64,000 bases of DNA from a virus. This document shows, in pieces, positions 15,149-41,718 of the stretch. The position numbers were made by a program, and so were the translations under genes. The stretch is taken from the IMG/VR virus record IMGVR_UViG_3300002054_000060. The stretch is one strand, 5' to 3'. The notes under the pieces were generated by a model. That model saw only the letters and a program-made list of their open reading frames with translations, had not been told where the DNA came from and did not search any database. Position 1 is the first letter of the stretch. The number at the start of each line of letters is the position of its first letter.

Positions 15149-15162
15149 CACCAGCTCTTATA

Positions 15163-15418: not shown

Positions 15419-15457
15419 AGAAACAGAACCAGCACCACCCGCACATGGAAGTGCATA

Positions 15458-15469: not shown

Positions 15470-15493
15470 TCGCACTACAAAGGAATCCAAGAC

Positions 15494-15808: not shown

Positions 15809-15833
15809 CTCTTACCTGAGTCCAGCTCTTATA

Positions 15834-15845
15834 GTAACCACTCAC
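15834..15845 (+). promoter_or_regulatory. 12-bp box (GTAACCACTCAC)
   Basis: 38 bp before ATG 15872. Confidence 0.8.
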
Positions 15846-15871
15846 TCACTCGCACTACACAGGAAATCACC

Positions 15872-16498
15872 ATGAGCACCGACACCGCCACAGAAATGAC
15901 CGACATCCGCGTTGCGTTCCTCAAGGAGAACGCCACATGGTCCGGGTTCTACCACTCACTCAAAGAACAGTTCGATCGCAAGGGGTATCTGTCCCCGAAG
16001 CAAATCGCGTGCATCGACAAGGGCATTGCCAAAGCCCAAACCAAAGACAAGGCAAACGACAAGGTTGCCAACAGCTTTGATGGCACCCAACTCGCCCAGG
16101 CGTTCGAGACCGCGATGCTGGGTGGCCTCAAAAGACCCAAGATCGCTGTGCGCGGTTACACGTTCTCCATTGCCAGCCAGCAGTCACGCAACGCAGGGAT
16201 GATCTACGTGAAGCGCCAAGACGACGAGGCTTATCTCGGCAAGATGACAGCGGATGGCACATCGTTTTATCCGACCCGAGCGTGTAGCGAGCACGACACA
16301 GCGCAGATCAACTTCCAACTCCGGGATCCCATCCAATCAGCGCTTGCCTACGCGCACGAGACCGGCAGTTGCTTTGCGTGCCACCGGGAGCTCACCCAGC
16401 CGGCCAGCATCGCTGCTGGGTGCGGCGCAACGTGCGCCAGTCGCTACGGTATCGAGTACGATGCCAGCTTGAACGACACTCAGAGGAGCGCGGCATGA
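15872..16498 (+). CDS. DUF6011-like zinc-finger protein
   Basis: C-terminal CFACHRELT...SIAAGCGATCA and N-terminal SLKEQF..KGYLSPKQ. Confidence 0.7.
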   Translation: MSTDTATEMTDIRVAFLKENATWSGFYHSLKEQFDRKGYLSPKQIACIDKGIAKAQTKDKANDKVANSFDGTQLAQAFETAMLGGLKRPKIAVRGYTFSIASQQSRNAGMIYVKRQDDEAYLGKMTADGTSFYPTRACSEHDTAQINFQLRDPIQSALAYAHETGSCFACHRELTQPASIAAGCGATCASRYGIEYDASLNDTQRSAA

Positions 16499-24407: not shown

Positions 24408-24720
24408 GGTCGCAGAACCTGGGTTCATCTTCTTCTCGCTGCTCGTGAATTTCATCCACTGGGGTTGGGTCAACCTTTGGCCTTTTAACTGGGGGTATTT
24501 TCCCGATGGGTGGTGTCGCTGGGATGGCTTCGCACTCGACGGAGCAGCCCTTGAGTTCTATCCGGCTGACATAAGCGCCCATAAATTGATGGTCGCTTGA
24601 CTGCTCACCGATGTCGTACTGGATGCCGGCAAAACCCGATGGCCTGTAGCCCTTGGTTTTGATGTGGGCCTCGAGCACTTCGTTGATCTCAGCCTTGGTC
24701 AAGCTGATGTTGATTTTCAT
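24400..24720 (-). CDS. hypothetical protein
   Basis: 106 aa, coupled to thyX. Confidence 0.7.
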   Translation of the reverse strand: MKINISLTKAEINEVLEAHIKTKGYRPSGFAGIQYDIGEQSSDHQFMGAYVSRIELKGCSVECEAIPATPPIGKIPPVKRPKVDPTPVDEIHEQREEDEPRFCDHD

Positions 24721-25454
24721 GGGGTTGCCTCTGCTTGCAAGTGGCCTTGTGTTTGGATGAACGCTGCCGTGGCGACTGGCGCTACCTGTTCAGCGAAGCC
24801 CAACAGCACTTGGGCGTATGCGCGGATTTCAGCCTGTGCGTGGGGGTGGGTGCGTTCAGCGATGAACTTGTACAAGTTGTGCAGGTTCGTGGTCACAAAC
24901 GCATGGGAGTAGATACCGGTGCCCAAGACTGACCTGGCGAGCTCCCTGGGGCAGCCTTGCTCGAGCAGCACCTCGTAAAGCTCGTAGCTTTGTTTGTTGT
25001 GCGCTGCGATGGCTGCGCTGATGGCTTGAGCGTTCTCGTTGTGGGAGTGTTCATCCCGCATCTGCTTGTTATCTGAGCTTTGGGTGCCGATAGACTCTGG
25101 GCTGGGGGTGTAGAACTCGTTGGGGAGTGCCTTGTAGCGCGCGCTGATTTCATTGACTGAAATTGTGCGATGTCTGAAAAGCTGCCGGAATACGAAGATG
25201 GGTGCCTTGATTTCGTAAGTGAGCGTCACCGATTCCAGTGGTGTGTTATGAGAGTTACGCACCAAGTAACCGATGAGCCTGGCATCGCTGCCTTTGTCCT
25301 CACCGGCACGCCACGCCGCGTCGTAGGACACCCGGGCGTTACGCACAATCGACAAATCAGACCCCATGCTGTCGATGAGCCTGAGCATTCCGTGGTCAAG
25401 GACTGGGATGGCCTCCCGGAGTGGCGCCATGACTTCTTTGACCTTCCGCATCAC
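24717..25454 (-). CDS. thyX: flavin-dependent thymidylate synthase
   Basis: RHRTISVNEISARY signature; HNTPLES; ELARSVL; HAQAEIR. Confidence 0.97.
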   Translation of the reverse strand: MMRKVKEVMAPLREAIPVLDHGMLRLIDSMGSDLSIVRNARVSYDAAWRAGEDKGSDARLIGYLVRNSHNTPLESVTLTYEIKAPIFVFRQLFRHRTISVNEISARYKALPNEFYTPSPESIGTQSSDNKQMRDEHSHNENAQAISAAIAAHNKQSYELYEVLLEQGCPRELARSVLGTGIYSHAFVTTNLHNLYKFIAERTHPHAQAEIRAYAQVLLGFAEQVAPVATAAFIQTQGHLQAEATP

Positions 25455-25870
25455 GCTGCGTCTCCGGAGTGGGGGCCACCGTCTTCGTCATCGATGTCGA
25501 GTTGGCCTACCTCGATGTTGGAGTCATCACCTGGGGTGCGTTGGTTGATGCCGACGACGTTGACGCCGCGCTTGAGCTTTTGGGGCGCTCCTTTTGGCTC
25601 TACCGCTGTTGGCACGCCAGTTAGCGCTAGTTGCTGTTCACCTGATGGCAACGCCGGCACCGGCGCTTGGGCAGCACGCCACCGTTCCCACGCGATGATC
25701 CGGGTCATGGCTGCTTTTTGGCCCCGTTCAGTGGGCAGGTCAGCCGCCTGGGCGACGTAACGCTCAATAAGCGCCTTGGCGCTTGATTCCGCCTCGTAGG
25801 CGAGCACCTGTGCGGGGTCTGCGTGTTGGAACTGGTTGTCGTCAGAAACGTAGAAGGTGGCTTTTCTCAT
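25451..25870 (-). CDS. hypothetical protein
   Basis: Start reset to ATG 25870 (MRKATFYV); TGAT coupling to thyX. Confidence 0.65.
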   Translation of the reverse strand: MRKATFYVSDDNQFQHADPAQVLAYEAESSAKALIERYVAQAADLPTERGQKAAMTRIIAWERWRAAQAPVPALPSGEQQLALTGVPTAVEPKGAPQKLKRGVNVVGINQRTPGDDSNIEVGQLDIDDEDGGPHSGDAA

Positions 25871-26021
25871 AGTGGTTTGGCAGTGCCTCTGGGTTGGGGT
25901 GTTTTGAAACTGCAATGGGAGTTACGCGCCACGCAGGCGCAGCCGTGCCGTGCATGGCGGTGAGCTTTTTGGGGCGCTTTTTGGGGAGCAGGGGCTCTTT
26001 GCCCTCCGCTGTCGGGTATGC

Positions 26022-26063
26022 AAAAAAAAGAGCGGGCCCACTTGGAGAAGTCAGGGGCGCTCT
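26022..26063 (-). terminator. probable terminator on - strand
   Basis: Imperfect AGAGCG..CCC stem followed by a T run on the - strand. Confidence 0.55.
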
Positions 26064-26142
26064 GGAGTAGTGCGCCCGACCCGCTGTTGGCAATTCCCGA
26101 AGAAAGACAGAACAACGTACTGAGTGCCCGCACCAATACTAG

Positions 26143-26154
26143 GTAATCACTTAC
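26143..26154. promoter_or_regulatory. 12-bp box (GTAATCACTTAC)
   Basis: Intergenic, upstream of the thyX operon; 11/12 match. Confidence 0.65.
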
Positions 26155-26211
26155 GTAGCTGCACGGGCCCACGCACTTTGCCATAACGACGCCGGCAAGC
26201 ACAAGCGCGCC

Positions 26212-26505
26212 TTACTCCGTGTCTTTTTTCAACAGACTCGCGATATACCTGTCGTTGAGCAGCATGGCCTGGTTGATGGTGGCTTGCAGAGCGCGCAGCA
26301 TGGCGCCGTTGTCCTGCGCGTCCTCTATGTCCATCGCCATGAGAGACACCGCGCACGAGCGCTGTGAGTTATCGCTGATGATGATTTCACCGACCAGGAT
26401 GGGCGGCGATTCAGTCTTCTGCGGGGGCTCATCAAACTCCATATCGAGTTGCACCGCTGCGATGCCGTGCTCGCGGAGAAACTGCCGGGTGTGGATACTT
26501 TTCAT
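26212..26505 (-). CDS. hypothetical protein
   Basis: Start reset to ATG 26505 (MKSIHTRQF). Confidence 0.6.
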   Translation of the reverse strand: MKSIHTRQFLREHGIAAVQLDMEFDEPPQKTESPPILVGEIIISDNSQRSCAVSLMAMDIEDAQDNGAMLRALQATINQAMLLNDRYIASLLKKDTE

Positions 26506-26522
26506 GAGAGTTTTGCTCGCTG

Positions 26523-26666
26523 TTATTCGCCAGAGGCAGCCTTGCGCTTGCTGCGCTTTTTGGATTTCGCCTTGGCCTTGGCCTTGCTTTTGGCTTTTTT
26601 CTTGGGCTTGGGGGCCTGCGCAGCAACCGGCTCCGCGTCCTGCCTGAATGTGTATTTCTCGCTCAT
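26523..26666 (-). CDS. 47-aa Lys/Ala-rich basic mini-protein
   Basis: MSEKYTFRQDAEPVAAQAPKPKKKAKSKAKAKAKSKKRSKRKAASGE. Confidence 0.55.
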   Translation of the reverse strand: MSEKYTFRQDAEPVAAQAPKPKKKAKSKAKAKAKSKKRSKRKAASGE

Positions 26667-26713
26667 GGCTCTGGCGTGGCAACTCTGACTATAAGGGGAG
26701 CAATCAGTGTAAA

Positions 26714-26725
26714 GTAAGTGCTTAC
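26714..26725. promoter_or_regulatory. 12-bp box, symmetric form GTAAGTGCTTAC, in a divergent promoter region
   Basis: Between - strand gene 26666 and + strand gene 26766. Confidence 0.8.
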
Positions 26726-26765
26726 CTAATTGTGTTCGCACTATCAAAACTGGAGCAACCCCTAG

Positions 26766-27353
26766 ATGTCGGAACTTGTCGCAGACCAGTGGCACCAGAT
26801 AGCGTTCACCGCGGAGGCGCTCGCTAGCCAGTGGGCCACGATTTCGTTGGCAACATACAACGATGACGCATCGCTACTGTGCAAGATCACGCTCAACGCG
26901 GCGGAGTACGGCGACCGGTGGCACTTGTGGCGCCTCGTCGAATCTGGTGAATACCAGCTTTTGCCGCTGGGGAGCGATGTGCCGCCAGCAGCAGGAATGT
27001 GGATGCGCCACAAATCTCCAACGCCGGAATGTGTGACAGAGGAGGAACCGGCGCGCAAGCGCTTTGAGACCGATGTAGAGCTGGAATTGTTTGTGGGCTG
27101 GCAAATGGCGGGCAACCCCTTCCACCTGCAAGACGTTGACGTAAACAGCCTGAAAATTACTGGGCCCGGTTGCGCAGCAGGGTGCCCAATAAGCCGTGCC
27201 GCGAAGGTGGGTCTTGTCAGCGATAACCTCTGGCGCTGGAATGGCGACAACTACGTAGACTTGCTTGCAGCAGAAGGGGAGCTGGCCCCAGGCGCTGCCT
27301 TCTGGATACGCGCCTATGAGTCAGTCACGATTGAGTTCCCACTGCCCGATTAA
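26766..27353 (+). CDS. two-repeat beta-domain protein of extracellular type
   Basis: Internal repeat L..(DQ/GW)W......W....Y..L....(V/L)xPxA(G/A)xWxR. Confidence 0.65.
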   Translation: MSELVADQWHQIAFTAEALASQWATISLATYNDDASLLCKITLNAAEYGDRWHLWRLVESGEYQLLPLGSDVPPAAGMWMRHKSPTPECVTEEEPARKRFETDVELELFVGWQMAGNPFHLQDVDVNSLKITGPGCAAGCPISRAAKVGLVSDNLWRWNGDNYVDLLAAEGELAPGAAFWIRAYESVTIEFPLPD

Positions 27354-27398
27354 CCAATTGCATAATGCAACTCCACCCAACGTAGAGCACTAACTTAA

Positions 27399-28475
27399 AT
27401 GAAAATGTACGCACTACTTGCTGCACCCTTGCTGGCGTTTGCGCTGGCATCGGGCGCAGCGTCCGACGACGACATGGCTACTGTGGCTCCTATGTCACCA
27501 ACCAACTTAGCTGTGCAGAGTAACGATGCCGGGGTACTACTCACATGGGACGCAGTAGATGCTGCGCTCTCTTATGATGTATATCGCTCCGACACTGGCG
27601 AGAGCATCACTGAGGTCATGGGCACTGAGTTCATAGACACCGCGATGCCATCAGCCACGGGATACTTTGTCACTGCCTGTGATGCTTTCCGCGTCTGCTC
27701 TGTTCCGAGCGAGAGTGTGAGATTGCCGGACGCGCCCATCATCGACGCTGGCGTAGCGGATGACCCTGCTGTGCCATCTAACGTGACCTATGTACTCAAC
27801 GTCTCAGGGGGCGCCACTATCAACTTTGATGCTGTCGTGGGGGCTGTGGGTTACCTGCTGCATATCAATGGCGAGTTCAGCTCTTTCACCATTGCAGGCA
27901 CCAGCTTCATGGTCGATGCGTTCGATGTGACCGCGATTTACCAAGTGAGTGCTTACTTGCCTATGGCGATGATCACACACCCGGGGAAGTCCGTCGCAGC
28001 GATTGCTTTCGACGACACCGGTACCGGGGGTGGCACTGACGACCTTGCGGTGGCACTGAATCGCATCGCAGAGCTTGAACTGGCGCTAGCCACAGCGACC
28101 GGGGATCTCACCGCAGCGAATGCGACGATCGCCGAGCGTGACGCGACCATTGTGGAGCTTAGATTGGTTATCGACACCGACGCTGACGGCGCGGAATTGC
28201 AGCTTGCGCTCAACGAAGCCTCTGTGCTGATTGCGGATCAAACGACGCTCATAGCAGATCAAGCCGATGTGATATCAGAGCTTGAGACGCGAGCCGGTAC
28301 AGACGCTGGCACGATTGCGCAACTCGAGGCCGATCTGCGCCTTTGCTTGGCTAGCGACACACCAGCGGACGATACGCCCACGGATGAAGCGCCTGTAGAC
28401 GAGACTCCAGTGGATGAAGCGCCTGCGGAAGAGACACCAGTGGGGGACATGCCGCCTCCGCCGCCTGGTGGTTAA
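27399..28475 (+). CDS. secreted FN3-like protein with coiled coil and acidic/Pro-rich tail
   Basis: Signal peptide MKMYALLAAPLLAFALASG; PTNLAV....VLLTWDAV....YDVYRS FN3 pattern; 5-aa DE(A/T)PV repeats. Confidence 0.75.
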   Translation: MKMYALLAAPLLAFALASGAASDDDMATVAPMSPTNLAVQSNDAGVLLTWDAVDAALSYDVYRSDTGESITEVMGTEFIDTAMPSATGYFVTACDAFRVCSVPSESVRLPDAPIIDAGVADDPAVPSNVTYVLNVSGGATINFDAVVGAVGYLLHINGEFSSFTIAGTSFMVDAFDVTAIYQVSAYLPMAMITHPGKSVAAIAFDDTGTGGGTDDLAVALNRIAELELALATATGDLTAANATIAERDATIVELRLVIDTDADGAELQLALNEASVLIADQTTLIADQADVISELETRAGTDAGTIAQLEADLRLCLASDTPADDTPTDEAPVDETPVDEAPAEETPVGDMPPPPPGG

Positions 28476-28596
28476 TCCATCAGCGCCTAGTGCGCTGATT
28501 CAGTAGCAACAGAGGCCGCGTTCCTTGATACAGGAGCGTGGCCTTTTCTCGTTTTGCACGCCACACAATTGATTGATCCAAGAGAGCTTCTGAATC

Positions 28597-29367
28597 ATGA
28601 GCACGCAGCGACTCAAGGCCAGCCCACTCTTTCACACAGACTTCAATGGACCGAAGCTCGACCTGCCCAAACACCTGATTAAGCGCAGCAGTGGCGCGCT
28701 GGAGCTGCGCGGTGGCGCCGGTGTAAAGCAAGGCGGCATGTGGCTGGTCGGGTGGCCTGAGACAACGTTCGCCCCGCAGTGCAGAATCAGAGTGCGGCTC
28801 GACTACTCCAACATGCGACCCAACGGCCAAAGCGCCTTGATATGGACGATGCCTGCTCCGCTTGGCAAGGCGCTGAACTACAGCGATCAGCAAAGCATAG
28901 ATGTCGAGGTCAACATGGGTTTCAACCCTGCGCGGCCCGAGCTACTGAGCTGTTACCTGGTTGCCGGCAGCGCCGTTCGATTCGGAGAGGTCATCAACGT
29001 CACTCACAAGCACGGTATAGACATACAGCAGGGTGAGCACGACCTTTGGATTGACTGGGGACTGGATCACGTCGCTTGGGGCATTGATGCCGTGGAGCTA
29101 CAGCGCAGCACGGAGCTTGTGCCCACGATGCCTGCCAAGCTGGTGCTGTCACGTGAGATGAATGGCAACAGCACAACAGCGTCACCAGATGACGTGGCGA
29201 AGTTTCTGAGCGTCACAGTGCAGGAATACGACGACGGGATATCCTTGGCAGAGCGCAGAGCACAATTGCGCACGCGCTCCGCAGCGATGCAGGCTCACAT
29301 CCGGCAACTAACCACTCGCAAAGCAGAGCTTGCTGAGCGCGCCCGTAAGTTCGAGCGCTACACCTGA
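28597..29367 (+). CDS. GH16/ConA-fold-like protein with C-terminal coiled coil
   Basis: FHTDFNGPKLD; SIDVE; HDLWIDWGLDHVAWGIDA match GH16 landmarks. Confidence 0.6.
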   Translation: MSTQRLKASPLFHTDFNGPKLDLPKHLIKRSSGALELRGGAGVKQGGMWLVGWPETTFAPQCRIRVRLDYSNMRPNGQSALIWTMPAPLGKALNYSDQQSIDVEVNMGFNPARPELLSCYLVAGSAVRFGEVINVTHKHGIDIQQGEHDLWIDWGLDHVAWGIDAVELQRSTELVPTMPAKLVLSREMNGNSTTASPDDVAKFLSVTVQEYDDGISLAERRAQLRTRSAAMQAHIRQLTTRKAELAERARKFERYT

Positions 29368-30176
29368 TGAACACACGCATCGCTTGCCTGTGCTCTTTAC
29401 TGGGCGCAGCTTTGTTCTCCCTCTCTTCGGAAGGGGCAGTAGTGAACCCCAAGCACTCCGATGCGCGGTGTCTCGAGATGCCTGACACCGGAGTGTCAGT
29501 GCTTGATCGCGCCGTCTGGCATGAGTGGTTTGGCGACTCGCTGCGCTGGGCCTCCGGCAATGAGCATCTCTCGTTTATCGGTGGCGAGTTACGTCAGCGC
29601 TTTGTGCCTGCGGACAATGGCACCGATCGTGTCACTGCTGCCATCGACATCGCCCCGCACAAGGTCTACCAGATCACGCAGCGCATCACGCTCGAGCCCG
29701 GTTGGTCATGGGGCATTCGACACCAGGGTGGCAAAATGGGTTTCTCCGTCGCTGGCGGTTCCACTCCCACCGGTGGTGAGATCAAGCCAGACGGCTTCAC
29801 AGCGCGAATTGGATTTAGGGGCAACAATGACGGCACAGGCCGCTTAATGCTCTACAGCTACGCCGCGGATAGAAACACCGACATCGGTGTGGATTACGTC
29901 ATATACCCCGGCACCATAACCCCGGGCATTCCACTCGATGTCACCACAGAGGTGGGCGTCAACAGCGCCGCTCATTTGTCGGATGGATGGGTGAAGGTTT
30001 GGTACAGCGAAAAACTCGTGCTGAGTCGTAAAGGCATTCAGTGGCAGAGCAAAGGGGAGCCCATCATCGACGTGCTGATGTACTCCACCTTCTTTGGGGG
30101 CAACACTGCTGAGTGGGCCCCTGAGCACACGAGCTACGCACGCATCAGTCGCGTGTGCTGGAAACCGGTGTTGTAG
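29367..30176 (+). CDS. polysaccharide lyase family 14-like (alginate lyase-like), secreted
   Basis: Signal peptide; GGKM..GG, DGFTARIGF, DGWVKVW and STFFGG..EWAP motifs of PL14. Confidence 0.7.
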   Translation: MNTRIACLCSLLGAALFSLSSEGAVVNPKHSDARCLEMPDTGVSVLDRAVWHEWFGDSLRWASGNEHLSFIGGELRQRFVPADNGTDRVTAAIDIAPHKVYQITQRITLEPGWSWGIRHQGGKMGFSVAGGSTPTGGEIKPDGFTARIGFRGNNDGTGRLMLYSYAADRNTDIGVDYVIYPGTITPGIPLDVTTEVGVNSAAHLSDGWVKVWYSEKLVLSRKGIQWQSKGEPIIDVLMYSTFFGGNTAEWAPEHTSYARISRVCWKPVL

Positions 30177-30552
30177 GAAATGTTATCCCAAGCAGTTTTG
30201 CTACTGCATTCCAGTCCACGTAGGGCCTGTTTTTGCCCAGCACGAGAGGGCAGCCCAGCGCTGCGTCGTCAATGTAGGTGTGCGCATACGCCTTGGGGCT
30301 TTGTGTCCAGCTCTTCTGAATAGGGTTTTCGTTGACGCCAAACAGCGGTATGTTGTGACTGTCGAACCACGCTTTTGCTTCACTCAGAGGTTCGCCCGAT
30401 CTCATGGTCCAGAGAATAAGCTGATCGCCTCGCGCTGCCAGGGCCTTGAGTGTTTCTGCAGCCCCTGGAACATCTGGCCCAACGTCGGGGTATTCATGTT
30501 CGACACAGGTGCCGTCAAAATCGATTGCGTAAATTGTCATGGCTTTAGTCAA
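30145..30552 (-). CDS. HAD-superfamily phosphatase (BT0820-like)
   Basis: IAIDFDGT motif I; LILWTMR; VNENP; YIDD. Confidence 0.9.
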   Translation of the reverse strand: MTKAMTIYAIDFDGTCVEHEYPDVGPDVPGAAETLKALAARGDQLILWTMRSGEPLSEAKAWFDSHNIPLFGVNENPIQKSWTQSPKAYAHTYIDDAALGCPLVLGKNRPYVDWNAVAKLLGITFPTTPVSSTRD

Positions 30553-31105
30553 TTGGCGTCTTGAGGTGTAGCGCTGCTATCGCTGTCAAAATGTCATCGA
30601 TGGATCCCGCGTTCTCCAGCACGAAATCAACGTCATCTTCGTGCAAGCCTGCTTCGCTGCTGTGTGATCCGTTGGCGCACGCGCTGGCGTTGTACCCCTC
30701 GTAGGAGGGCTTTATCTGCACGATCACGCCACCGAGCTCGCGTATAGCAGTGGCCTCATTTGCGTAGCGCACGTCGTCGCAGACCAAGCACTTGCCGGCG
30801 TGCAGCAAAGGCATCGCATTCATTCGCAGATGTTCCACCCAGAGATCCGGGTGTATAGAGCGACCCCAATCCCCCAGTGTCTGCATCCCGTAGCGTGCAG
30901 AGCGCCCCAGGAGCTCAGGGCACGACTCATTCTTTTCGTTGCCATACAGTGCGGATGGACTTACCCCCAAAGCGCCTATCATGGTCTTAATAGGGCTGGC
31001 AAAGCTGACCTTTTGCCACTTGTGATCATGAATAAGGTGCTTCGCCACCGTGGACTTACCACTGTGAGCTGGGCCTGAGAGCCCTATGATTGCGTGACCA
31101 CTCAT
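30545..31105 (-). CDS. deoxynucleoside monophosphate kinase
   Basis: IIGLSGPAHSGKST; FASPIK; MQTLG.WGR; DDVRYANEA; HSSE. Confidence 0.9.
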   Translation of the reverse strand: MSGHAIIGLSGPAHSGKSTVAKHLIHDHKWQKVSFASPIKTMIGALGVSPSALYGNEKNESCPELLGRSARYGMQTLGDWGRSIHPDLWVEHLRMNAMPLLHAGKCLVCDDVRYANEATAIRELGGVIVQIKPSYEGYNASACANGSHSSEAGLHEDDVDFVLENAGSIDDILTAIAALHLKTPID

Positions 31106-31455
31106 GTGTTTTTCTCCGCTCGATTGGCCTGCTCACTTAGGTCAACCGCTTGGCCCTCAACAAAAAGCGTTTCGCAGTCACGCCGGTAAACCTGATGCTC
31201 TGCATCTTCGACCAGGTTCTGCTGATCGTCGCGGGCAACAAGGCAGTATTTTTCTTGGTTGATCGGCTTTACCAGCACGGTCTCCCCCAGTAAGTGCCCG
31301 TACCAAATCTGGTCATACGCCAGGGAGATGATCTTGACTAGCCTTGCTGACATGCTGTTCTCGTGCAGTGGGGTGAATCGATCGGGTTCTATCTCGCTCA
31401 CCGCGGCGTCACTCCAGACGAGCACCTGGGCGGGGCGAGGGGGTTGTTCAGTCAC
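31102..31455 (-). CDS. hypothetical protein
   Basis: GTG start, coupled to the dNMP kinase. Confidence 0.65.
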   Translation of the reverse strand: MTEQPPRPAQVLVWSDAAVSEIEPDRFTPLHENSMSARLVKIISLAYDQIWYGHLLGETVLVKPINQEKYCLVARDDQQNLVEDAEHQVYRRDCETLFVEGQAVDLSEQANRAEKNT

Positions 31456-31462
31456 AATATCA

Positions 31463-31474
31463 GTATGTGCTTAC
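31463..31474 (-). promoter_or_regulatory. 12-bp box variant (ATA-GTAAGCACATAC on - strand)
   Basis: Directly upstream of GTG 31455; 11/12 match with the ATAGT context. Confidence 0.65.
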
Positions 31475-31521
31475 TATTTTGCTTACGCAAAGCAGGACGC
31501 AGTGCGCGCTGCTAGTGCTGC

Positions 31522-31934: not shown

Positions 31935-31946
31935 GTAAGCGCTCAC
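31935..31946. promoter_or_regulatory. 12-bp box variant (GTAAGCGCTCAC)
   Basis: In the AT-rich gap upstream of 31854. Confidence 0.6.
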
Positions 31947-34621
31947 TCATTGCCAAAAACAGCGTAGTCAAAATCACCAGCGAGAATCCCCTCACGGAAC
32001 CCAGGGGTTTGCTCCACAATGGCCCGGCGCAGCTTGGCGTGCTTTTTCAGGTGCTGGTGGAAGGGGTCTGAGAAGTCGATGATGTAGCAGATGTTCGGGC
32101 CGCTTTTCTTGGCTCGCAAAGCTCGTCCGATACGCTGGCGCAGGCCCGTCTCAGCTTTGCCCCCGCCACCGATTGCGAGAAATCCCACGCTGGGCACATC
32201 GACGCCGACATCCAGAATGGTGGTGCCGATGAGGATACCACCGCGCTTGATGACCTCAATGCCGGCCTTGCGCTGCGCCTTGGAGCTCGACCCCTGGATG
32301 TAGTCCACATCGATGTCAGGGGCTGCCGCCTGCATCATGCGCTTGAGAATCTCCCCGTGTGCTCGCTGCTGCACCAATATGAGCCCCGAGAGGCCATGCC
32401 GGTTGGCACGAATCGTCTCGGTGACAATCTGCCGGTTGCGATCCTCGTTCTCCGTGATGCCCATCTTGACCGCCTTCTGGTACGTCGCTGTGCGCGATAG
32501 CAACAAAGGGGCGCGTGCTGTCAGGTAGCGAAAGTAGGGGCGAGCCAGAATGCCGTTCTCAATAAGCTCTTGCTCACTGACCTGAATGGCGATCTCACCG
32601 GCAGTTGCCATCAGTCGCATGTTCGCCTCCATGTCATCGTTCATGAAGGGTGTTGCTGTCAGTGCCAGCCGGTAGTGCGCGTTCCTGCAGCCGTTCATCA
32701 CGCGAAAATAGGAATCAGAGGACGCTTCGTGTGCCTCCTCCATGATCACGCACTCAAACTTCAACAGCATTTCACGCACGTACACCGCACGCTGGTTGTG
32801 TGCTGCGACCTTGGCCTTGACGCGCTCCTCCACTTCGCGCTCAGGCTCGCGCTTGGCAACCAGTGCTGCTTTGAAGCTCTTGAGCCTCTCGAGCCGCTGG
32901 TGAGCGGATAGCCCGCCCAGGTGATCCCTTGTGAACGCCTTGATTTCCTTCTGCTCCTTGGCGTACTGCGCATCAAGCGTTGACATCAGCTCATCACTCA
33001 CCGATTTCTCCACCATTTGCTGCGCGATGGTCTGCACCATGCCGACGTTGAAGCCCTCGATCACGTTGATGTCGCCTTCGCCGACCATGCCGACCGGGAT
33101 GTTCATCGTCTCCATGATCGAGTCGCGCATCTGGTGCATCAGCACCTTGCGTGTCGTGAGAAATAGGGTGGTGCGACCCAAGTGTTTGAAGGCGATTTTA
33201 CAAACTCGGCTGTTATGCACCACGGTGAAATCAGCCAGCAGGAAGCGATGGTTGCCATCGACCTCAATACCAACGTATTCGCCGTCCTCCGAATCCACAC
33301 TGACCTCAAAACTGGTGTGCGTTGCCACCTTGTTTCTGCTTTGCGAAGTGACCCGCTTGCGTGGCACGCGAGTCGGAATCTCACTCAGCTCGCCCGAAAT
33401 GTGCATACGCTGATAGGGTGCGCCCATTGCCCACTTTTCACTGCGCGAGACGCGATAGCCTAAGCTGCGCCCTAGAAACTGAATAGCGTCAGCGAGCCGC
33501 TTAGACTTCTGGATGATCTCCAAGCTGTTTTTGTGCAGGTAGCCATCGGTGTCAATCAATCCCGCTAGCAGTTGCAGGCGCTGCTGACGACTGCTGGTGA
33601 GGTACTTCATAGGAATGGTCTTGAGCCACTTGCCATCTGGCGTTTCGTAGCGAAAACCGTGCAGCGCTCGACGCAGATGATTGAGCTTGCCGCGTTGTGT
33701 TGAAAGTGCAAGCGTCGGGCACACCCCCTCTTTTTTTCTGGCGTAGTCATTCAGCGACATGCCGTGCCTTATCGACATTCGCTCCAGATACTCTCGAATC
33801 TCAGGCTCTGGGTTGGTAATCTCAACCCCATGAACGGAGCCGTCGCCAAGCCACAGTCCAATCAAATAGGGATCGTGCGGAAAATCCACGGCATCCCATC
33901 CGTCATAACCGACTGAGAATTGCTTGGCGCAGTGCTTGAAGGTCTTGTTTTCTGCCAGGTAGTCCTCGATGTCGATGTCTACCACATCCTTGTCACGATA
34001 CGCCTTGGCTCTGCCGCAGTATTTGAGCGAGAGCGTGTGTCGGTCGTTACAGACCCACTCATCGTAGGAGGTGGCTGCTGTGGGCTTGATCCGGTACATT
34101 TTGGAGCGTCCAGAGTGAGTGCCCGTCACCGTCCTGAGCGTGTTGTCATCGCCAAGTAACTGGTCGCCCACGCGCACATCCTCGATCTTGCGGCGAGTGC
34201 CATCTGACATCAGCACTTCTGTGCCGGGCCGAAAACACTTACCTCCGCCCGTGGCGACCTGCGCAATGATCTGTCGGTGACGCGCCAGCAGCTCCCCTGT
34301 GCGAAACTGATAGTCGTACCGCGGATCATTGCCAAAGGAGTCCACCACGCACTCACGCACGGGCGGTCCCAGTGGGGGTGGCGCCTCGTGGCGTATCACT
34401 GTGACGTGATACTTCGCCGCAGTTAGCGCTTTGTACACCGTGGTGAGAAAGCCTGTGGGGAACTGCCCCTCGCCCCACTTAAAGAACGTCGATTGGCGGA
34501 TCGTGCCGTTGTATTCGGAGGTGTAGCCCAACCGCCCGGAAATCAGTTTCTTCACCTCTCCGTCCACATCCCCGTCAAGTTGTGTGGTGACAGGATTCGA
34601 GAGTAGGCGTATCGACTTCAT
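31943..34621 (-). CDS. SF2 (DEAD/DEAH-like) helicase containing an intein
   Basis: ATGGGK|S Walker A; EEAH; LTATP; TTILDVGVDVP; QRIGRALR. Confidence 0.92.
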   Translation of the reverse strand: MKSIRLLSNPVTTQLDGDVDGEVKKLISGRLGYTSEYNGTIRQSTFFKWGEGQFPTGFLTTVYKALTAAKYHVTVIRHEAPPPLGPPVRECVVDSFGNDPRYDYQFRTGELLARHRQIIAQVATGGGKCFRPGTEVLMSDGTRRKIEDVRVGDQLLGDDNTLRTVTGTHSGRSKMYRIKPTAATSYDEWVCNDRHTLSLKYCGRAKAYRDKDVVDIDIEDYLAENKTFKHCAKQFSVGYDGWDAVDFPHDPYLIGLWLGDGSVHGVEITNPEPEIREYLERMSIRHGMSLNDYARKKEGVCPTLALSTQRGKLNHLRRALHGFRYETPDGKWLKTIPMKYLTSSRQQRLQLLAGLIDTDGYLHKNSLEIIQKSKRLADAIQFLGRSLGYRVSRSEKWAMGAPYQRMHISGELSEIPTRVPRKRVTSQSRNKVATHTSFEVSVDSEDGEYVGIEVDGNHRFLLADFTVVHNSRVCKIAFKHLGRTTLFLTTRKVLMHQMRDSIMETMNIPVGMVGEGDINVIEGFNVGMVQTIAQQMVEKSVSDELMSTLDAQYAKEQKEIKAFTRDHLGGLSAHQRLERLKSFKAALVAKREPEREVEERVKAKVAAHNQRAVYVREMLLKFECVIMEEAHEASSDSYFRVMNGCRNAHYRLALTATPFMNDDMEANMRLMATAGEIAIQVSEQELIENGILARPYFRYLTARAPLLLSRTATYQKAVKMGITENEDRNRQIVTETIRANRHGLSGLILVQQRAHGEILKRMMQAAAPDIDVDYIQGSSSKAQRKAGIEVIKRGGILIGTTILDVGVDVPSVGFLAIGGGGKAETGLRQRIGRALRAKKSGPNICYIIDFSDPFHQHLKKHAKLRRAIVEQTPGFREGILAGDFDYAVFGNE
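33212..34237 (-). mobile_element. intein 1 with LAGLIDADG homing endonuclease (342 aa)
   Basis: CFRPGTEVLMSDG...VVHN|S; LIGLWLGDG and LLAGLIDTDG. Confidence 0.95.
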
Positions 34622-36051: not shown

Positions 36052-36659
36052 ACGCCGTGGTGGGTAGAAAATCAATTTCGGCCAAGCGGCGCGAGTTGAT
36101 TCTTGAGCAGGGGTCAACGGGCATTGTTCAGATAGACACCGGCATCGCGTTTGGCTACACCGGTGAAATCATCACCAGTGTCTACGGCCCAAATCACTGG
36201 CTTGTGCCGGACGCTCTGGTATCAGGCCAGCCATCCCCTGAGCGCATTTTTGCGCACACCGCGGTGACTTACTTAGGGGTTGGCGAAATGACTTCTTTCC
36301 GCAAGGAGCGCATTGCGTTGCAAGCCTGTATGAGATCCCTCACAGCTAGACAAACCTTTGTGGCAACCAACACACTCGATTTGAAGGGTCAGTTGAGTTA
36401 CCTGTTGCGCTCACTGGCTCTTGGACCTATGGGCATCACCAATCGAGAGGGGTTGGTCCTGGAGGTATCGAGAACGAACCTGGCGGCAATGCTCGGTTGC
36501 AGTCGAGAAATGGTGGGACGCATCATTAGGGAGCTAACCGTCTCCGGCGTTATTCATTGCCTTGGCGGCTGCAAAAGTATCACCGTGCTTGGGGTTTATC
36601 GAGACCCTCCAGAGCCACTAATGCCATTGCCCCTTTCTTCAATGGGGCACGCATCATGA
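36048..36659 (+). CDS. Crp/Fnr-family transcriptional regulator
   Basis: SRTNLAAMLGCSREMVGRIIREL...G.I is the Crp HTH signature. Confidence 0.85.
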   Translation: MNAVVGRKSISAKRRELILEQGSTGIVQIDTGIAFGYTGEIITSVYGPNHWLVPDALVSGQPSPERIFAHTAVTYLGVGEMTSFRKERIALQACMRSLTARQTFVATNTLDLKGQLSYLLRSLALGPMGITNREGLVLEVSRTNLAAMLGCSREMVGRIIRELTVSGVIHCLGGCKSITVLGVYRDPPEPLMPLPLSSMGHAS

Positions 36660-38803
36660 AGTTTGAACACAGTGTTCGGGTTGACTACCAACACTCGTTT
36701 CGCGCCGACCGCGTGGCGGGCATGTTCGACATCGACCCGGCTGAGTACGAGCTTGAGAAAACCTGGTCAGTGGACATGCCTTTTGAGGACATTCCTGACT
36801 GGCGCGTGGGCCTGATCGTTGGTCCAAGCGGATCCGGTAAGTGCCTTGGCCCCGAGACAGAGATCATCATGTATGACGGCAGCTTCAAGCGCGTTGACCA
36901 GATCAAAGTGGGCGACAAGCTGCTCGGCGATGACAACAAGCCTCGCAGGGTCACCGCGATAACTCGAGGTAGATCCAAGATGTACAAGATTGAGCCTGGT
37001 CGCGGTTACGATACATGGCGCTGCAATGACAAGCACATCATGACCTTGGTAAGTGGCTCCAAGACCGCTCTTGCCGAACGCGACGAGGTGGTGGACATTG
37101 GCATCGACGAATATCTGAAGCTGAACAAGGGTCAAAAACCACCTCTCAAGCAATTTTCAGTTGGATTTGACGGGTGGACTCGCACAGACTTTCCGTTTGA
37201 CCCTTACTTGATGGGGCTGTGGCTGGGTGACGGAAGCCGAGGTGATGTGAGAATACACAACCCGGATCAGGAGATTATTGATTACCTGCACGAGTTTGTT
37301 GACGAGAATCCTGAGTACAGGCTGGTCAGCAGAGAGGATGAGGAACAGTGCCCATGTCACTCGTTGAGAACAAAGGGCAAGGGAATGTATGCCAAGAACC
37401 CCTTTCTTGATTTTGTTAGGACTTTGATTGATGTCGATGGCAATAAGTATGTACCTACTGAGTATCTGACATCAGCCATTGATCAGCGAGCCCGCTTGCT
37501 GGCCGGCTTGATTGACACAGATGGCTATAACGGCAATGGCTCTATTGAGATCATTCAGCGATCCAAGCCGCTGGCTGATGCGGTTCAGTTTTTGGCTCGA
37601 TCTCTCGGGCTGCGAGTGAAGCGCTGTGTAAAGCGCGTCGAGGGTTACGACCATGATTACCACCGCATGTCGATCTCGGGCGATTTTTCACACATACCCA
37701 TTCGCATCGAGCGCAAAAAGCCGGGCGAGTTCAAGGGAAACAGAAATCCGCTGCGCGCTGGTTTTGAGGTTATTGAGGAGGAAAGCGAGGGCGATTACGT
37801 CGGCATCATGGTTGACGGCAACCAGCGCTTCCTGAAGTCTGATTTTGTCGTGGTGCATAACACCACCGTGGCACGCAGAGCCTTTGGTGACGCCTACCAC
37901 GAGGGGTTTGAATGGGACGGTCGCTCGCTTATCGACAACTTCCCCAAAGAGATGAGTTCTGACGAGGTGGTGGCGTGTCTCTCCAGTGTCGGGCTGTCGT
38001 CACCCCCTTCGTGGTTGAAGCCGCATCACGTCCTATCCAACGGAGAGAAGTTCCGTGCTGACATGGCAAGGCTCATCGCAGAGGCGCCGGATGACAAGCC
38101 GATCGTGGTGGATGAGTTCACCTCTGTGGTGGATCGACAGGTGGCAAAGATCGCCTCGCATTGTGTGGCGAAGAACGTCAGAAAGAAGAACAAGCGTTTT
38201 GTGGCTGTTTCCTGCCATGACGACATCGCGGAGTGGCTCGAGCCGGACTGGATATACCAGGTCGATTCGGGCGAGTTCCGCAGGGGGTCTCTTCGGCGGC
38301 CTCAACTTGTACTCCAGGTCGAAAGAAGAGACAACAAAGTATGGCGACTCTTCGCTGGTCATCACTATTTAGACGCCTCAAACCACAAGTCGAGTCACTG
38401 CTACGTCGCCTCGCTAGAGGGCAAACCGGTTGGCTTTTGCAGCGTACTGAAATTCCCCCACGCGCACCCGAACATGGCGAATATGTGGCGTGCGAGTCGT
38501 TCTGTTTGCCTGCCTGACTATCAAGGGCTCGGCATTGGGGTAAAGCTGATCGATGCGGTCGGAGGTATATACGTAGCTGACGGTAAGCGCTTTAGAGCCA
38601 CAGCCAGCCACCCGGCAATGATTCATCACTTCAATAACACTCCGAACTGGTTGATGGTGCGAGCCCCGGGTCGCGCACCGCGCCCAGGCAAGAACTCCAA
38701 GATAACGAGTCAGTCGCACGCACGCCTGACGGCAAGCTACGAATACGTCAGCGACGAGCATCTCGCCGAACGACAACAAAAAGAGGTCATAGACCCAAAA
38801 TGA
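36656..38803 (+). CDS. ABC-ATPase / GNAT acyltransferase fusion containing an intein
   Basis: GPSGSGK|T; LSNGE; VVDEFTS; SCH; C-terminal VCLPDYQGLGIG acetyl-CoA motif; start reset to ATG 36656. Confidence 0.9.
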   Translation: MKFEHSVRVDYQHSFRADRVAGMFDIDPAEYELEKTWSVDMPFEDIPDWRVGLIVGPSGSGKCLGPETEIIMYDGSFKRVDQIKVGDKLLGDDNKPRRVTAITRGRSKMYKIEPGRGYDTWRCNDKHIMTLVSGSKTALAERDEVVDIGIDEYLKLNKGQKPPLKQFSVGFDGWTRTDFPFDPYLMGLWLGDGSRGDVRIHNPDQEIIDYLHEFVDENPEYRLVSREDEEQCPCHSLRTKGKGMYAKNPFLDFVRTLIDVDGNKYVPTEYLTSAIDQRARLLAGLIDTDGYNGNGSIEIIQRSKPLADAVQFLARSLGLRVKRCVKRVEGYDHDYHRMSISGDFSHIPIRIERKKPGEFKGNRNPLRAGFEVIEEESEGDYVGIMVDGNQRFLKSDFVVVHNTTVARRAFGDAYHEGFEWDGRSLIDNFPKEMSSDEVVACLSSVGLSSPPSWLKPHHVLSNGEKFRADMARLIAEAPDDKPIVVDEFTSVVDRQVAKIASHCVAKNVRKKNKRFVAVSCHDDIAEWLEPDWIYQVDSGEFRRGSLRRPQLVLQVERRDNKVWRLFAGHHYLDASNHKSSHCYVASLEGKPVGFCSVLKFPHAHPNMANMWRASRSVCLPDYQGLGIGVKLIDAVGGIYVADGKRFRATASHPAMIHHFNNTPNWLMVRAPGRAPRPGKNSKITSQSHARLTASYEYVSDEHLAERQQKEVIDPK
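36842..37861 (+). mobile_element. intein 2 with LAGLIDADG homing endonuclease (340 aa)
   Basis: CLGPETEIIMYDG...VVHN|T; LMGLWLGDG and LLAGLIDTDG. Confidence 0.95.
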
Positions 38804-39090: not shown

Positions 39091-39842
39091 GCGACATGGG
39101 TGCTTCCGCTGCTGACATCAGGGCGGAAGAAAAAACGAAGCGAGGCCCACGTCGAAACTGGACTCCGAGTGAGTGGCTCAAGGCTCGCACCATGTACGAG
39201 ACTGGCGACTACACCGTTAAGGAAATTGCCGATAAATTTGGTCGCAACAAGACCTCACTCTCCCAAAGGTTCAAGCGCTTTGGTGTCAAGAAAGGCACCA
39301 ACTTCACTGAGGCATCCACCAAGGTCGAGCGAGATCTGCGGCGCGAGCAGCGTGAGAAGGCTGACGAGACCGTAAAGCGAGCCAAGGAAACCAAGGAGGA
39401 ACACTACAAGTGGGCCCGCTCTCTGTCGCAAATGGCCGTATCGATACTCGCCAAGGCTCAGAGCGAGAGCCGACCGATCGGTATGGTCAAGCCGGACATT
39501 CTGGCCGTCAAGGCGGCAATGGAGGCGCTACAAAAGGGGCAGGACATGCGCAACATCGCGCTGGGGTTAGATAAAGGCGACATCCTCGACACCGATGAGA
39601 TCCCCGAATTTGGCATCGTCGAGATGACCGAGGACGAGCGACTGGAGGTAATACGCAAAGCGGATTCTCTGCTTGAACTCTCCGAGGACATGGACATCAC
39701 TACAACAGGTGAAGGGGAGCGAGAAGAAGCCGTCGCGCAGCAAGAGTCCGAGGTGCGCTCAAATATGGAGCGCCTGAAGTCAGAGTATGTCGATGATGGC
39801 GGTGTCGATGGCGCTGCTCGCATACCGGGTCACGACGCCTGA
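39087..39842 (+). CDS. terS: terminase small subunit (putative)
   Basis: N-terminal HTH (YETGDYTVKEIADKFG); directly upstream of TerL. Confidence 0.7.
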   Translation: MSDMGASAADIRAEEKTKRGPRRNWTPSEWLKARTMYETGDYTVKEIADKFGRNKTSLSQRFKRFGVKKGTNFTEASTKVERDLRREQREKADETVKRAKETKEEHYKWARSLSQMAVSILAKAQSESRPIGMVKPDILAVKAAMEALQKGQDMRNIALGLDKGDILDTDEIPEFGIVEMTEDERLEVIRKADSLLELSEDMDITTTGEGEREEAVAQQESEVRSNMERLKSEYVDDGGVDGAARIPGHDA

Positions 39843-39846
39843 GCTC

Positions 39847-41718
39847 ATGAATGATTTGCAGTTGCCAGCCGATGCGATGCGGCTGCACAGTAAACAGTTT
39901 GAGGTGTTCCGTAACCGCTCGCGTTTCCGCTGTGTGGTGGCTGGGCGCAGATTTGGTAAGTGCCAGAGTTTTGACACTTTGGTGGCAATGCAGGACGGAT
40001 CGTACCAGAAACTCGGCACCATCAAGGCCGGGGATCAGGTACTGGCGCTCAACGAAGCGACCTGCGAGCTTGAGCCGCGCACGGTGCAGCACGTCCATGA
40101 CAATGGCGTGCGTGAGGTCATCACGCTGACATTGACCAACGGGCGTGAAATCACCGCAACGCCCAATCACCCTTTCCTCGTGGATGGGCAGTGGATGGAG
40201 CTACAGGACGTGGAGCCTGGGCAGTTGATGGCGGTATCTAAACGTGAAACTTCGGGCAAGGAGTGCAGTAAGTACATACCGATTCGCTTTGAAGATTTTG
40301 TTGCTCATTTGCGACCTCACTCCAGCAGGGATACCGCGGAACTGCGTGAGCTGTTGAAAAGCTGGCGCAAGCAATCTACCAGCCGCATCAGCACTCGGCG
40401 CTATGAGCAGCTCAGGAAATTCTCAGACGGGCACTTCGATGCGCTGCTGTACGGCGATCTGCAGTTTTGCGAAGTCGAGTCGGTCAAGCACGAGCCAGAG
40501 CCGCAACAGACGTATGACCTGACCGTTGAGGGGCACCACAACTTTGTGGCGAACTCGATGATTACGCACAACACCGTTTTGTCTCAAGCCGAAATCATCA
40601 AGGCCGCCTCCAAGCCCAACAAACAGGTTTGGTACATAGCGCCGACCTACCGCATGGCGAAGCAAATCATGTGGCGAGAAATAAGAGATGTGATACCTCG
40701 CAGGTGGGTGCGCAAGACAAACCAGACCGCCATGAGCATCGACCTGGTTAACGGGTCGCGGATCGAGCTCAAGGGGTCAGATGACCCTGACAAGCTGCGA
40801 GGTGTGGCTCTCGATTTTGTAGTGCTGGACGAGTTCCAAGCTATGCGAAAGGAGACCTGGAGCGAGGCCATCCGGCCAACTCTTGCTACCACAGGGGGTC
40901 AGGCTTTGTTTATTGGGACGCCACTTTTGCGTAACCACCTCTACGACATGTACATGCAGGGCCAGAACCCCGTCAACATCAAAGAGGGCACATTTCGCTC
41001 GTGGCAGTTCGTCACCGCAGACAGTCCGTTTATTCCGCCGCGTGAAATTGAGATGGCGAAGCGCGAACTTGACCCCAAAACTTTCGGGCAAGAGTTCTTA
41101 GCCTCGTTTAATCTAATGTCCGGCAGGGTCTATTACGCCTTCAACCGCGACACCCATGTGGCAGATCTGCCGTTCAATCCCAACTTGCCTCTCTGGGTGG
41201 GTCAGGATTTCAACGTCGATCCGATGGCAGCCTCTGTGATGCAGTGGCACCCTGACCTGAACCAGCTCTGGGTCATCGACGAGATTGTGCTGCCGAACTC
41301 CAACACCCAAGAGGCGGTCGAGGAGCTGGAGCGCCGGTACTGGCGCAACAAGCGCAACACGAATATCTACCCGGATGCGACCGGTGCGAATCGCTCCACC
41401 TCGAGTTTCAAATCCGACATCGACATCATCCGGGACAGTGGCTACAACCGTATCAAGATGCGCAAGGTCAACCCGCCCGTTGCCGATCGAATCGCTGCGG
41501 TCAATAGAATGCTGCTGTCGGCTTCCGGGGCCGTCAGGATGCGTGTTGACCGTAAATGTACGCATCACATTCGCGCCTTTGAGCAGGTGGTCTACAAGCC
41601 CGGCTCTCGCGATGTGGACAAATCAGACGACATCGAGCACATCCTGGATGCCTGCGGTTACACGGTCCACGCTGAGTTCCCCACACGCAAGATACACATC
41701 CTTGGTGTCAACATTTGA
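39847..41718 (+). CDS. terL: terminase large subunit containing a mini-intein
   Basis: VAGRRFGK|T; IAPTYRMAK; LRG..LD.VVLDE; GQDFNVDPM; EHILDACGY; start ATG 39847. Confidence 0.95.
   Translation: MNDLQLPADAMRLHSKQFEVFRNRSRFRCVVAGRRFGKCQSFDTLVAMQDGSYQKLGTIKAGDQVLALNEATCELEPRTVQHVHDNGVREVITLTLTNGREITATPNHPFLVDGQWMELQDVEPGQLMAVSKRETSGKECSKYIPIRFEDFVAHLRPHSSRDTAELRELLKSWRKQSTSRISTRRYEQLRKFSDGHFDALLYGDLQFCEVESVKHEPEPQQTYDLTVEGHHNFVANSMITHNTVLSQAEIIKAASKPNKQVWYIAPTYRMAKQIMWREIRDVIPRRWVRKTNQTAMSIDLVNGSRIELKGSDDPDKLRGVALDFVVLDEFQAMRKETWSEAIRPTLATTGGQALFIGTPLLRNHLYDMYMQGQNPVNIKEGTFRSWQFVTADSPFIPPREIEMAKRELDPKTFGQEFLASFNLMSGRVYYAFNRDTHVADLPFNPNLPLWVGQDFNVDPMAASVMQWHPDLNQLWVIDEIVLPNSNTQEAVEELERRYWRNKRNTNIYPDATGANRSTSSFKSDIDIIRDSGYNRIKMRKVNPPVADRIAAVNRMLLSASGAVRMRVDRKCTHHIRAFEQVVYKPGSRDVDKSDDIEHILDACGYTVHAEFPTRKIHILGVNI
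39961..40572 (+). mobile_element. intein 3, mini-intein without LAGLIDADG motifs (204 aa)
   Basis: CQSFDTLV...ITATPNHPFL...TYDLTVEGHHNFVAN...THN|T. Confidence 0.92.

Follow-up and report, generated by a model that had tools for sequence, protein, structure and literature searches.

Why would a phage carry, among its early and nucleotide-metabolism genes and 10 kb away from its structural module, a small group of genes whose products look directed at carbohydrate? The question is raised by positions 26,714 to 30,176 of a 64,000-nucleotide stretch (the window, by which we mean this whole stretch) of the IMG/VR virus record IMGVR_UViG_3300002054_000060, where four plus-strand genes, here called g1 to g4, are enclosed by minus-strand genes on both sides. 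An earlier sequence-only reading had described them as a box-controlled cassette inserted against the local orientation, with two signal peptides, a protein of glycoside hydrolase family 16 (GH16) type and a polysaccharide lyase of family 14 (PL14), and had proposed that they break down algal polysaccharides or biofilm matrix. The four opposed open reading frames (26766-30176) behind a symmetric box (26714-26725) are indeed there, and two of their products, g2 and g4, do begin with what look like signal peptides. The explanation towards which we lean, taken as a whole, is that this is an accessory (moron-like) block of four glycan-directed proteins, two of them probably exported, in which the exported lyase g4 would act against a surface or biofilm polyuronate of the host's own type.

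The protein that carries most of the argument is g4. Its residues 108-258 match Pfam PF21294 (Polysacc_lyase_14) at E 1.6e-13, scoring 51.3 bits where the cut-off is 27, and the PL14 motifs that had been noticed earlier are all located in it, with GGK at 121-123, DGFTAR at 142-147 and STFFGG at 240-245. The sole chain found by a single-sequence search of the PDB was 6KCW, that of Aly36B, which belongs to PL36 rather than to PL14 (PMC11920209). When g4 and its two closest homologues are combined into a profile, this matches Aly36B at 4.4e-16, the PL14 enzyme AkAly30 of Aplysia at 3.9e-9 and the chlorovirus enzyme vAL-1 at 0.16. The AlphaFold2 model of g4 (pLDDT 69, pTM 0.73) gives the same order in Foldseek: Aly36B is the best match (E 8e-16, TM 0.70-0.78), AkAly30 (5gmt) and vAL-1 (3a0n) are next with TM 0.61, and a PL20 glucuronan lyase follows. 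We assign g4 from its sequence to the PL14/PL36 superfamily of beta-jelly-roll lyases, within which, judged by the profile E-values, it appears closer to PL36 (Aly36B) than to those PL14 enzymes whose structures are solved. The proposed PL14 lyase stands therefore as a lyase, with a family match and intact catalytic residues, while the family label shifts towards PL36. Another candidate for comparison, PsAly (PMC6796002), is a beta-helix PL31 enzyme unrelated to 6KCW and was set aside.

The conserved residues of the PL36 active centre are Lys143, Arg169, Tyr185 and Tyr187, with Lys143 proposed to serve as the base and also as the acid (PMC8286568). Their counterparts in the profile alignment are K123, R147, Y163 and Y165 of g4, so that four of four are kept, at a spacing of 24/16/2 in g4 as against 26/16/2 in Aly36B, which has a two-residue insertion. 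The Aly36B numbering is fixed, since alanine in the deposited mutant chains 6KCV/6KZK (K143A/Y185A, K143A/M171A) falls exactly at the aligned positions. In vAL-1, Lys197 and Ser219 are indispensable for catalysis (PMC13709232), and Thr145 of g4 sits 22 residues past the GGK lysine, as Ser219 does, a correspondence in spacing only, the vAL-1 match being weak (E 0.16). With this complete active centre g4 is apparently an active lyase.

Is the enzyme likely to leave the cell? The N-termini of g2 (MKMYALLAAPLLAFALASGAAS) and g4 (MNTRIACLCSLLGAALFSLSSEGA) each combine a basic n-region with a hydrophobic core, which in g4 follows a basic residue and is 15 residues long. The 12-residue Kyte-Doolittle mean of the core is 2.4 in both proteins, compared to 1.05 in g1 and -0.14 in g3, and by this hydrophobicity heuristic neither g1 nor g3 has a signal peptide. 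Both g2 and g4 show the hallmarks of a Sec signal, namely a basic N-terminus, a hydrophobic core of 10-15 residues and a small-residue cleavage region, and are probably exported by a Sec-type route. Additionally, g4 shares a pair of cysteines with all seven aligned bacterial homologues, and C35 and C264 likely form a disulfide of the exported protein.

The nearest relatives of g4, 39-46% identical, are found in metagenome-assembled genomes (MAGs) of Granulosicoccaceae/Granulosicoccus and of marine Acidimicrobiia. In three Granulosicoccaceae genomes the homologues are present in two or three tandem copies and adjoin shared GT4, GT2, VanZ-like, methyltransferase or MBOAT genes, the homologue P0017 lies in a Wzy-type polysaccharide locus, and the bacterial proteins begin with signal or lipoprotein-like sequences. 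These relatives came from the alignment of paralogues, while those of g3, described below, came from an exhaustive search: word-indexed protein searches with g3 and g4 each retrieved only the query itself, tblastn of g3, g4 and the tail-fibre paralogue P0002 against 50,697 GenBank phage records gave no match, and IMG/VR pattern scans, run once on g4 by itself and once on the alignment of its family and confined to a few peptide patterns, found no relatives. Together g4 and the Granulosicoccaceae enzymes may represent a new compact lyase family. A separate observation concerns five loci from Granulosicoccaceae and other MAGs: inside exopolysaccharide (EPS) or Wzy loci of macroalgal epibionts they contain lyases of a family that is uncharacterised and stands between PL14 and PL36, with as many as three copies in tandem and with some members fused to long N-terminal regions (603-675 aa).

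The same fold occurs a second time in the phage itself. Two paralogous full-length proteins of 358 and 359 residues, encoded outside the window downstream of the gpJ-like tail protein, carry a C-terminal PL14/PL36-like domain in which the catalytic lysine is replaced by Phe or Arg and both tyrosines are lost to other residues; one of them shows a sub-threshold LtfC-like N-terminal sandwich. Unlike these putative tail-fibre proteins, g4 has no N-terminal attachment domain, and its identity to them (29-33%) is lower than to the bacterial enzymes (40-46%). In a tree of the lyase domains g4 groups with the bacterial enzymes, in a part of the tree that is poorly resolved and with long branches for the fibre paralogues.

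What would such an enzyme do for the phage? The gene structure, the folds, the family membership, the kept or lost catalytic residues and the homologue context are shown by the analysis, whereas export, substrate, timing and benefit are inferred. Carrying its Sec signal, g4 would be exported from the infected or lysogenic cell and would cleave a polysaccharide containing uronic acid by beta-elimination; by analogy with Aly36B, K123 would serve as base and acid, with Y163 and Y165 helping in proton transfer and R147 neutralising the carboxylate. The likeliest substrate would be an exopolysaccharide of the host's own type, on the bacterial surface or in the biofilm, because the nearest homologues sit in EPS loci, because putative fibres of the phage bear the same fold and because loosening of the matrix or removal of the receptor would benefit a phage directly. 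Cleavage would loosen the matrix around infected cells and take away receptor polysaccharide, which would keep progeny from being trapped and later phages from adsorbing. In this scenario g3 would only bind glycan, reaching the outside at lysis, g2 would be an exported protein of FN3/Ig modules and coiled coil, and g1 an Ig-like sandwich. A bolder version, to which we give only a minor chance, is that one lyase fold has been put to two uses: the dead copies in the fibres would bind a polyuronate receptor on the host surface, while the exported g4, captured from an EPS locus of the host's type, would destroy this same receptor, freeing progeny and blocking superinfection, with g3 as a fibre-derived and translationally coupled second glycan binder.

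The GH16 features that had been pointed out in g3 hold for the fold and not for the chemistry. Pfam GH16 (PF00722) matches g3 with 13.3 bits, below the cut-off of 22; the exhaustive search brought in 11 distant homologues, several of which exceed the GH16 model (P0005 with 31.3 bits, P0013 with 37 bits). An AlphaFold2 model built with the homologue alignment has a confident core at residues 55-188; all of its top 50 Foldseek matches in the PDB (50/50) are GH16 proteins (best E 8.8e-9), and GH16 clusters in the Atlas match with TM 0.63-0.68. On this model g3 has the jelly-roll fold of GH16 (clan GH-B), followed by a helical or coiled-coil C-terminal tail (~215-256). In an ungapped alignment of Y95-P112 the motif E-x-D-x(x)-E is kept in 8 of 8 aligned homologues, and g3 alone deviates; in the family profile the motif aligns with VEVDIE (E-x-D-x-E) of the F. 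succinogenes glucanase 2r49, which we take to be the catalytic site of that GH16 enzyme. The first glutamate is kept in g3 as E104, the helper aspartate has become asparagine and the acid/base glutamate glycine; since these two are gone, the retaining GH16 mechanism is not expected. Most likely g3 is a glycan-binding pseudoenzyme rather than a glucanase, and the glucanase or galactanase activity that had been suggested for it is unlikely. Both of its closest relatives are found in one and the same place, as the last gene of a conserved phage tail module that follows the tape measure. At 8001-9023 of locus L018 and 7001-7999 of locus L028, a protein in such a fixed slot ends in a GH16-like domain with an intact E-x-D-x(x)-E, in the latter locus followed by an FN3/lectin-like protein.

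The first two genes are less telling. No Pfam, PHROG, NCBIfam or PDB sequence match was found for g1, nor does it resemble the fibre paralogues in their N-terminal domains; its Atlas model (pTM 0.73) resembles Ig sandwiches of FlgD_ig/LTD type (TM 0.6-0.7), and it is probably an acidic Ig-like beta-sandwich protein of no family. The layout of g2 comprises the predicted signal peptide, two putative FN3/Ig-like modules, a coiled-coil-like acidic heptad segment of ~100 residues and an acidic Pro-rich tail. Its residues 26-77 match phrog_7440, the Ig-like part of major tail proteins (E 4e-14), Ig_7 (15.2 bits) and GH85_C (15.4 bits) are sub-threshold in Pfam, tblastn among GenBank phages finds only an Ig domain, in the tail protein of a Bacillus phage, and the Atlas gives FN3 leads only, at 0.75. 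BLASTP detected no internal repeat in g2. PADLOC defence-system models gave no match, and NCBIfam nothing of value.

There is little doubt that the four genes belong to a phage, as had been supposed. The IMG/VR record that contains the window is 103,961 bp long and classified as a provirus, and all large genes scanned in it are phage-like, including DnaE, CobT/CobS-like proteins, RecA, SbcCD, DnaB and a primase alongside the terminase, portal, capsid, tape measure and gpJ-like tail protein. The portal is 46-50% identical to portals of the RHEph10-type Rhizobium phages and the SSU5-type Klebsiella/E. coli phages, which makes this a siphophage of ~110 kb of SSU5/RHEph10 type as judged from sequence and indicates kinship to the SSU5-type phage-plasmids; the group also carries a pair of ParB genes. 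The only IMG/VR match to the portal is at 42%. ThyX-bearing viral contigs have nothing else in common with the window, and Stenotrophomonas phage BUCTxx99 shares ParB and the helicase while the region after the helicase is not conserved. The window DNA comes from one 'algae metagenome' sample, in which only three runs, all of DNA, contain the stretch; no RNA run is listed for it. This origin agrees with the macroalgal or biofilm habitat that had been suggested, as does the best-hit taxonomy of g4, since Granulosicoccus is described as the most abundant symbiont of kelp-blade surfaces (PMC9238374).

On the left the cassette is flanked by ThyX (24717-25454) and small minus-strand genes up to 26666/26682, on the right by a HAD-like gene (30145-30552), a dNMP kinase and an intein-bearing helicase. 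Independent gene calling on two public assemblies gave identical g1-g4, and both their GC content at the three codon positions and their codon fit are within the range of 23 other window genes. As the calls agree and the codon and GC pattern matches that of the phage, g1-g4 are real genes that are not compositionally foreign, and they lend no support to a recent insertion. The stop of g3 and the start of g4 share one base (TGATG), suggesting coupled translation, and g1 has a GGAG Shine-Dalgarno site 10 nt ahead of its ATG. At its 3' end g4 shares 32 nt (30145-30176) with the HAD-like gene that converges on it, with no terminator between the two; a transcript of either gene would extend antisense into the other.

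Is the block controlled by the box? The motif family of the box has 39 matches in the window against 3.0 expected. In the early region (window 3000-16000, and at 21478) it forms the core of a repeated ~50-bp unit ahead of early genes, in which a CAACAC-like element, 17-18 nt, (T)ATAGT, AAGCACTCAC-tcac, a Shine-Dalgarno site and the start codon follow each other, so this unit looks like a full promoter with a conserved leader rather than a bare operator. The box at 26714 stands 41 nt ahead of the g1 start and 48 nt ahead of the minus-strand ATG at 26666, and compared to the consensus GTAAGCACTCAC it has one mismatch on the minus strand and three on the plus strand. It may serve one or both of the divergent units, and for this reason the description of the cassette as box-controlled is unproven. 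A perfect antisense copy inside g2, for which the chance expectation of the exact 12-mer in 128 kb is ~0.008, may mark an antisense start, may be an operator or may be fortuitous. After g2, two hairpins and a T-tract resemble an intrinsic terminator: the stretch folds as RNA with -47.5 kcal/mol (z = -3.95), and none of 200 shuffles is equally stable. The block therefore probably consists of two units, g1-g2 and then g3-g4, which again leaves control of all four genes by one box unproven. Rfam gave no match in 25500-31500. The g1-g2 unit is moron-like in its anatomy, with the opposite strand, its own Shine-Dalgarno sites and the terminator-like hairpin, while of the other moron features a promoter was not found and the codon usage is not distinct from that of the phage. 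Coordinates are collected in Table 1.

Table 1. Positions of the genes and sequence features discussed (window coordinates, unless marked G000).
Feature	Position	Strand	Details
g1	26766-27353	+	195 aa
g2	27399-28475	+	358 aa
g3	28597-29367	+	256 aa
g4	29367-30176	+	269 aa
12-bp symmetric box	26714-26725	.	GTAAGTGCTTAC; arms GTAAG/CTTAC; in 99-nt divergent intergenic region
Perfect early-type box	27945-27956	-	GTAAGCACTCAC; antisense within g2 coding sequence; without early-unit flanks
Two hairpins after g2	28479-28556	+	8-bp stem 28479-28499; 15-bp stem 28511-28546; then TTTTCTCGTTTTG T-tract
g3 E104-V-N106-M-G108	28906-28920	+	replaces GH16 motif E-x-D-x(x)-E; codons checked
g4 Cys pair C35 (QCL), C264 (VCW)	29469-30158	+	from alignment
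g4 active centre K123	29733-5	+	codon checked
g4 active centre T145	29799-801	+	codon checked
g4 active centre R147	29805-7	+	codon checked
g4 active centre Y163	29853-5	+	codon checked
g4 active centre Y165	29859-61	+	codon checked
Paralogous 358/359-aa proteins (loci L002/L003)	G000 89061-90137, 90449-91528		outside window; downstream of gpJ-like tail protein
Intein-bearing genes	31943-34621, 36557-38803, 39787-41718; G000 10324-12654, 100081-102843		

Could g4 instead feed its host? The proposal of an auxiliary metabolic module, in which the exported lyase and its glycan-binding partners degrade alginate or another polyuronate of algal walls for an alga-dwelling host, is in line with the source of the DNA, with the activity of Aly36B, AkAly30 and vAL-1 on alginate or glucuronan (PMC8286568, PMC8618178, PMC13709232) and with the closest relatives of g4 being in Granulosicoccaceae, whose type genus is a dominant kelp epibiont (PMC9238374); the ParB genes and the provirus classification would make long-term carriage possible. 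However, the nearest homologues are within loci of polysaccharide biosynthesis and not of uptake or catabolism, the cassette has no transporter and no downstream genes of uronate catabolism, the lyase fold in putative tail fibres points to a ligand on the host surface, and g3, with its degenerate motif, is not predicted to work as a glucanase. For these reasons we consider such a module unlikely, and a bacterial surface or biofilm target the better candidate. A resident plasmid-like prophage could alternatively use the cassette for lysogenic conversion, expressing proteins that remodel the host surface or biofilm, or adhesins (g2), with the lyase activity being a side issue or directed at the matrices of competitors. 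The moron-like anatomy of g1-g2 would suit this, carriage is suggested by the ParB pair together with the phage-plasmid kinship, and g2 is probably exported and has an adhesin-like build; no promoter was recognised in 26000-31000, though, and the proposal overlaps largely with the one that we prefer, timing being the main difference. As a distinct explanation we find it improbable.

It is also conceivable that g1-g4 are parts of the virion, such as alternative or accessory fibre, decoration or receptor-binding proteins, and that the hydrophobic N-termini are not export signals at all. Virion surfaces often carry Ig-like and FN3 domains, and the Ig-like module of g2 resembles those on major tail proteins; relatives of g3 are the terminal genes of phage tail modules, and g4 has its paralogues among the putative tail-fibre genes. 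Against this, the cassette is on the opposite strand, with early and nucleotide-metabolism neighbours and far from the structural module, the signal peptides of g2 and g4 are of canonical n-h-c build, g4 retains the Cys pair of its exported bacterial relatives, and the attachment domain of the 358/359-aa paralogues is missing from it. A role in the virion is therefore very improbable in our opinion.

The preferred explanation, an exported lyase acting on a host-type polyuronate, has to contend with several observations of its own. Alginate or glucuronan is the substrate of those PL14 and PL36 members that have been characterised, and the DNA is from an algal sample, so an algal substrate is possible. 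The signal peptides were judged by sequence heuristics alone, and with g1 and g3 devoid of them the four proteins may not act together. Confidence in the structural models is moderate, with mean pLDDT of 62 and 69, and the tail-fibre label of the paralogues comes from gene position and the sub-threshold LtfC-like match. A related prophage was not found when the portal of the phage was sought in five genomes with g4 homologues (four Granulosicoccaceae and one Acidimicrobiia). Expression of the block is hard to account for: a search of 26000-31000 for sigma-70-like promoters gave none for g1-g2 or for g3-g4, the box at 26714 agrees better with the consensus when read on the minus strand than on the plus strand and is devoid of the flanks typical of the early promoter-like units, and a perfect box lies antisense inside g2. 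All of these weigh against the proposal and keep our preference for it modest.

How does g4 compare with known systems? Aly36B (PL36, Chitinophaga sp. MD30; PDB 6KCW, 6KCV, 6KZK) is its best solved match both by profile and by fold, with the four active-centre residues in correspondence, but the two are only ~20% identical and Aly36B is a bacterial catabolic polyM endolyase, while g4 is phage-encoded and has its close relatives in EPS biosynthesis loci. The PL14 enzymes vAL-1/A215L (3A0N, 3GNE) and AkAly30 (5GMT) share PF21294, the jelly roll (TM 0.61) and the GGK lysine with g4, with weaker sequence similarity (0.16 and 3.9e-9) than PL36. By analogy, the closest described parallel that we found is in the chlorovirus PBCV-1, which has both the free PL14 enzyme A215L/vAL-1 and a virion protein, A561L, with a PL14-like domain; treatment of virions with the A561L domain raised infectivity, which the authors credit to the removal of receptor debris (PMC8145301). 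In both cases one virus holds free and virion-linked copies of the fold, the latter being putative here. The differences are that A561L-D4 is active, whereas the putative virion-side copies of the phage have lost the catalytic Lys and Tyr residues, and that g4, compared to the free A215L, bears a bacterial Sec signal.

The bacterial homologues of g4, probably exported and adjoining synthesis genes of GT2/GT4 or Wzy type, resemble in their gene context the lyases and hydrolases of EPS operons such as AlgL and ExoK. AlgL of the alginate operons is a PL5 enzyme with an alpha/alpha toroid and ExoK of succinoglycan a GH16 enzyme, so that fold or chemistry differs from that of the g4 family. With the Bacillus and Fibrobacter lichenases of GH16, g3 shares the jelly roll; unlike these endo-glucanases it keeps only E104 of the motif, does not reach the Pfam GH16 cut-off and has a helical tail at its C-terminus. 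The non-catalytic GH16-like glucan-recognition proteins of invertebrates lack part of the catalytic motif as well, which is an analogy to g3 rather than a demonstrated kinship.

Phage enzymes directed at host polysaccharides are well known, and almost all of those described belong to the virus particle. Tailspike and tail-fibre depolymerases, including their soluble forms, are like g4 in being phage enzymes against a surface polysaccharide of the host, with the g4 fold being present in putative fibres here; most of them, however, are beta-helix tailspikes built into virions and freed at lysis, whereas g4 is a small jelly-roll protein that bears a Sec signal and whose gene lies apart from the structural ones. 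In this phage the intact enzyme is small and probably Sec-exported, and degenerate copies of the same fold are in the putative tail fibres. The function is of an ordinary type for phage accessory genes, and is less usual in being secreted. Should g4 act on the matrix of its own host, we would have an example of a phage that destroys receptor or loosens biofilm among bacteria living on macroalgal surfaces. For counts of auxiliary metabolic genes in viromes g3 is a caution, as it would be scored as a glucanase and yet, from its motif, is not expected to be one.

Two minor observations concern the neighbourhood of the cassette and the phage at large. The divergent minus-strand unit across from g1 is led by a gene at 26523-26666 (minus strand) for a 47-residue, very Lys-rich protein (…KKKAKSKAKAKAKSKKRSKRK…), with a composition like that of a histone H1 tail. 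Inteins, of Hint plus LAGLIDADG type or mini, are carried by five phage genes, those for the helicase, an ABC/GNAT-type protein, the large terminase, RecA and DnaB.

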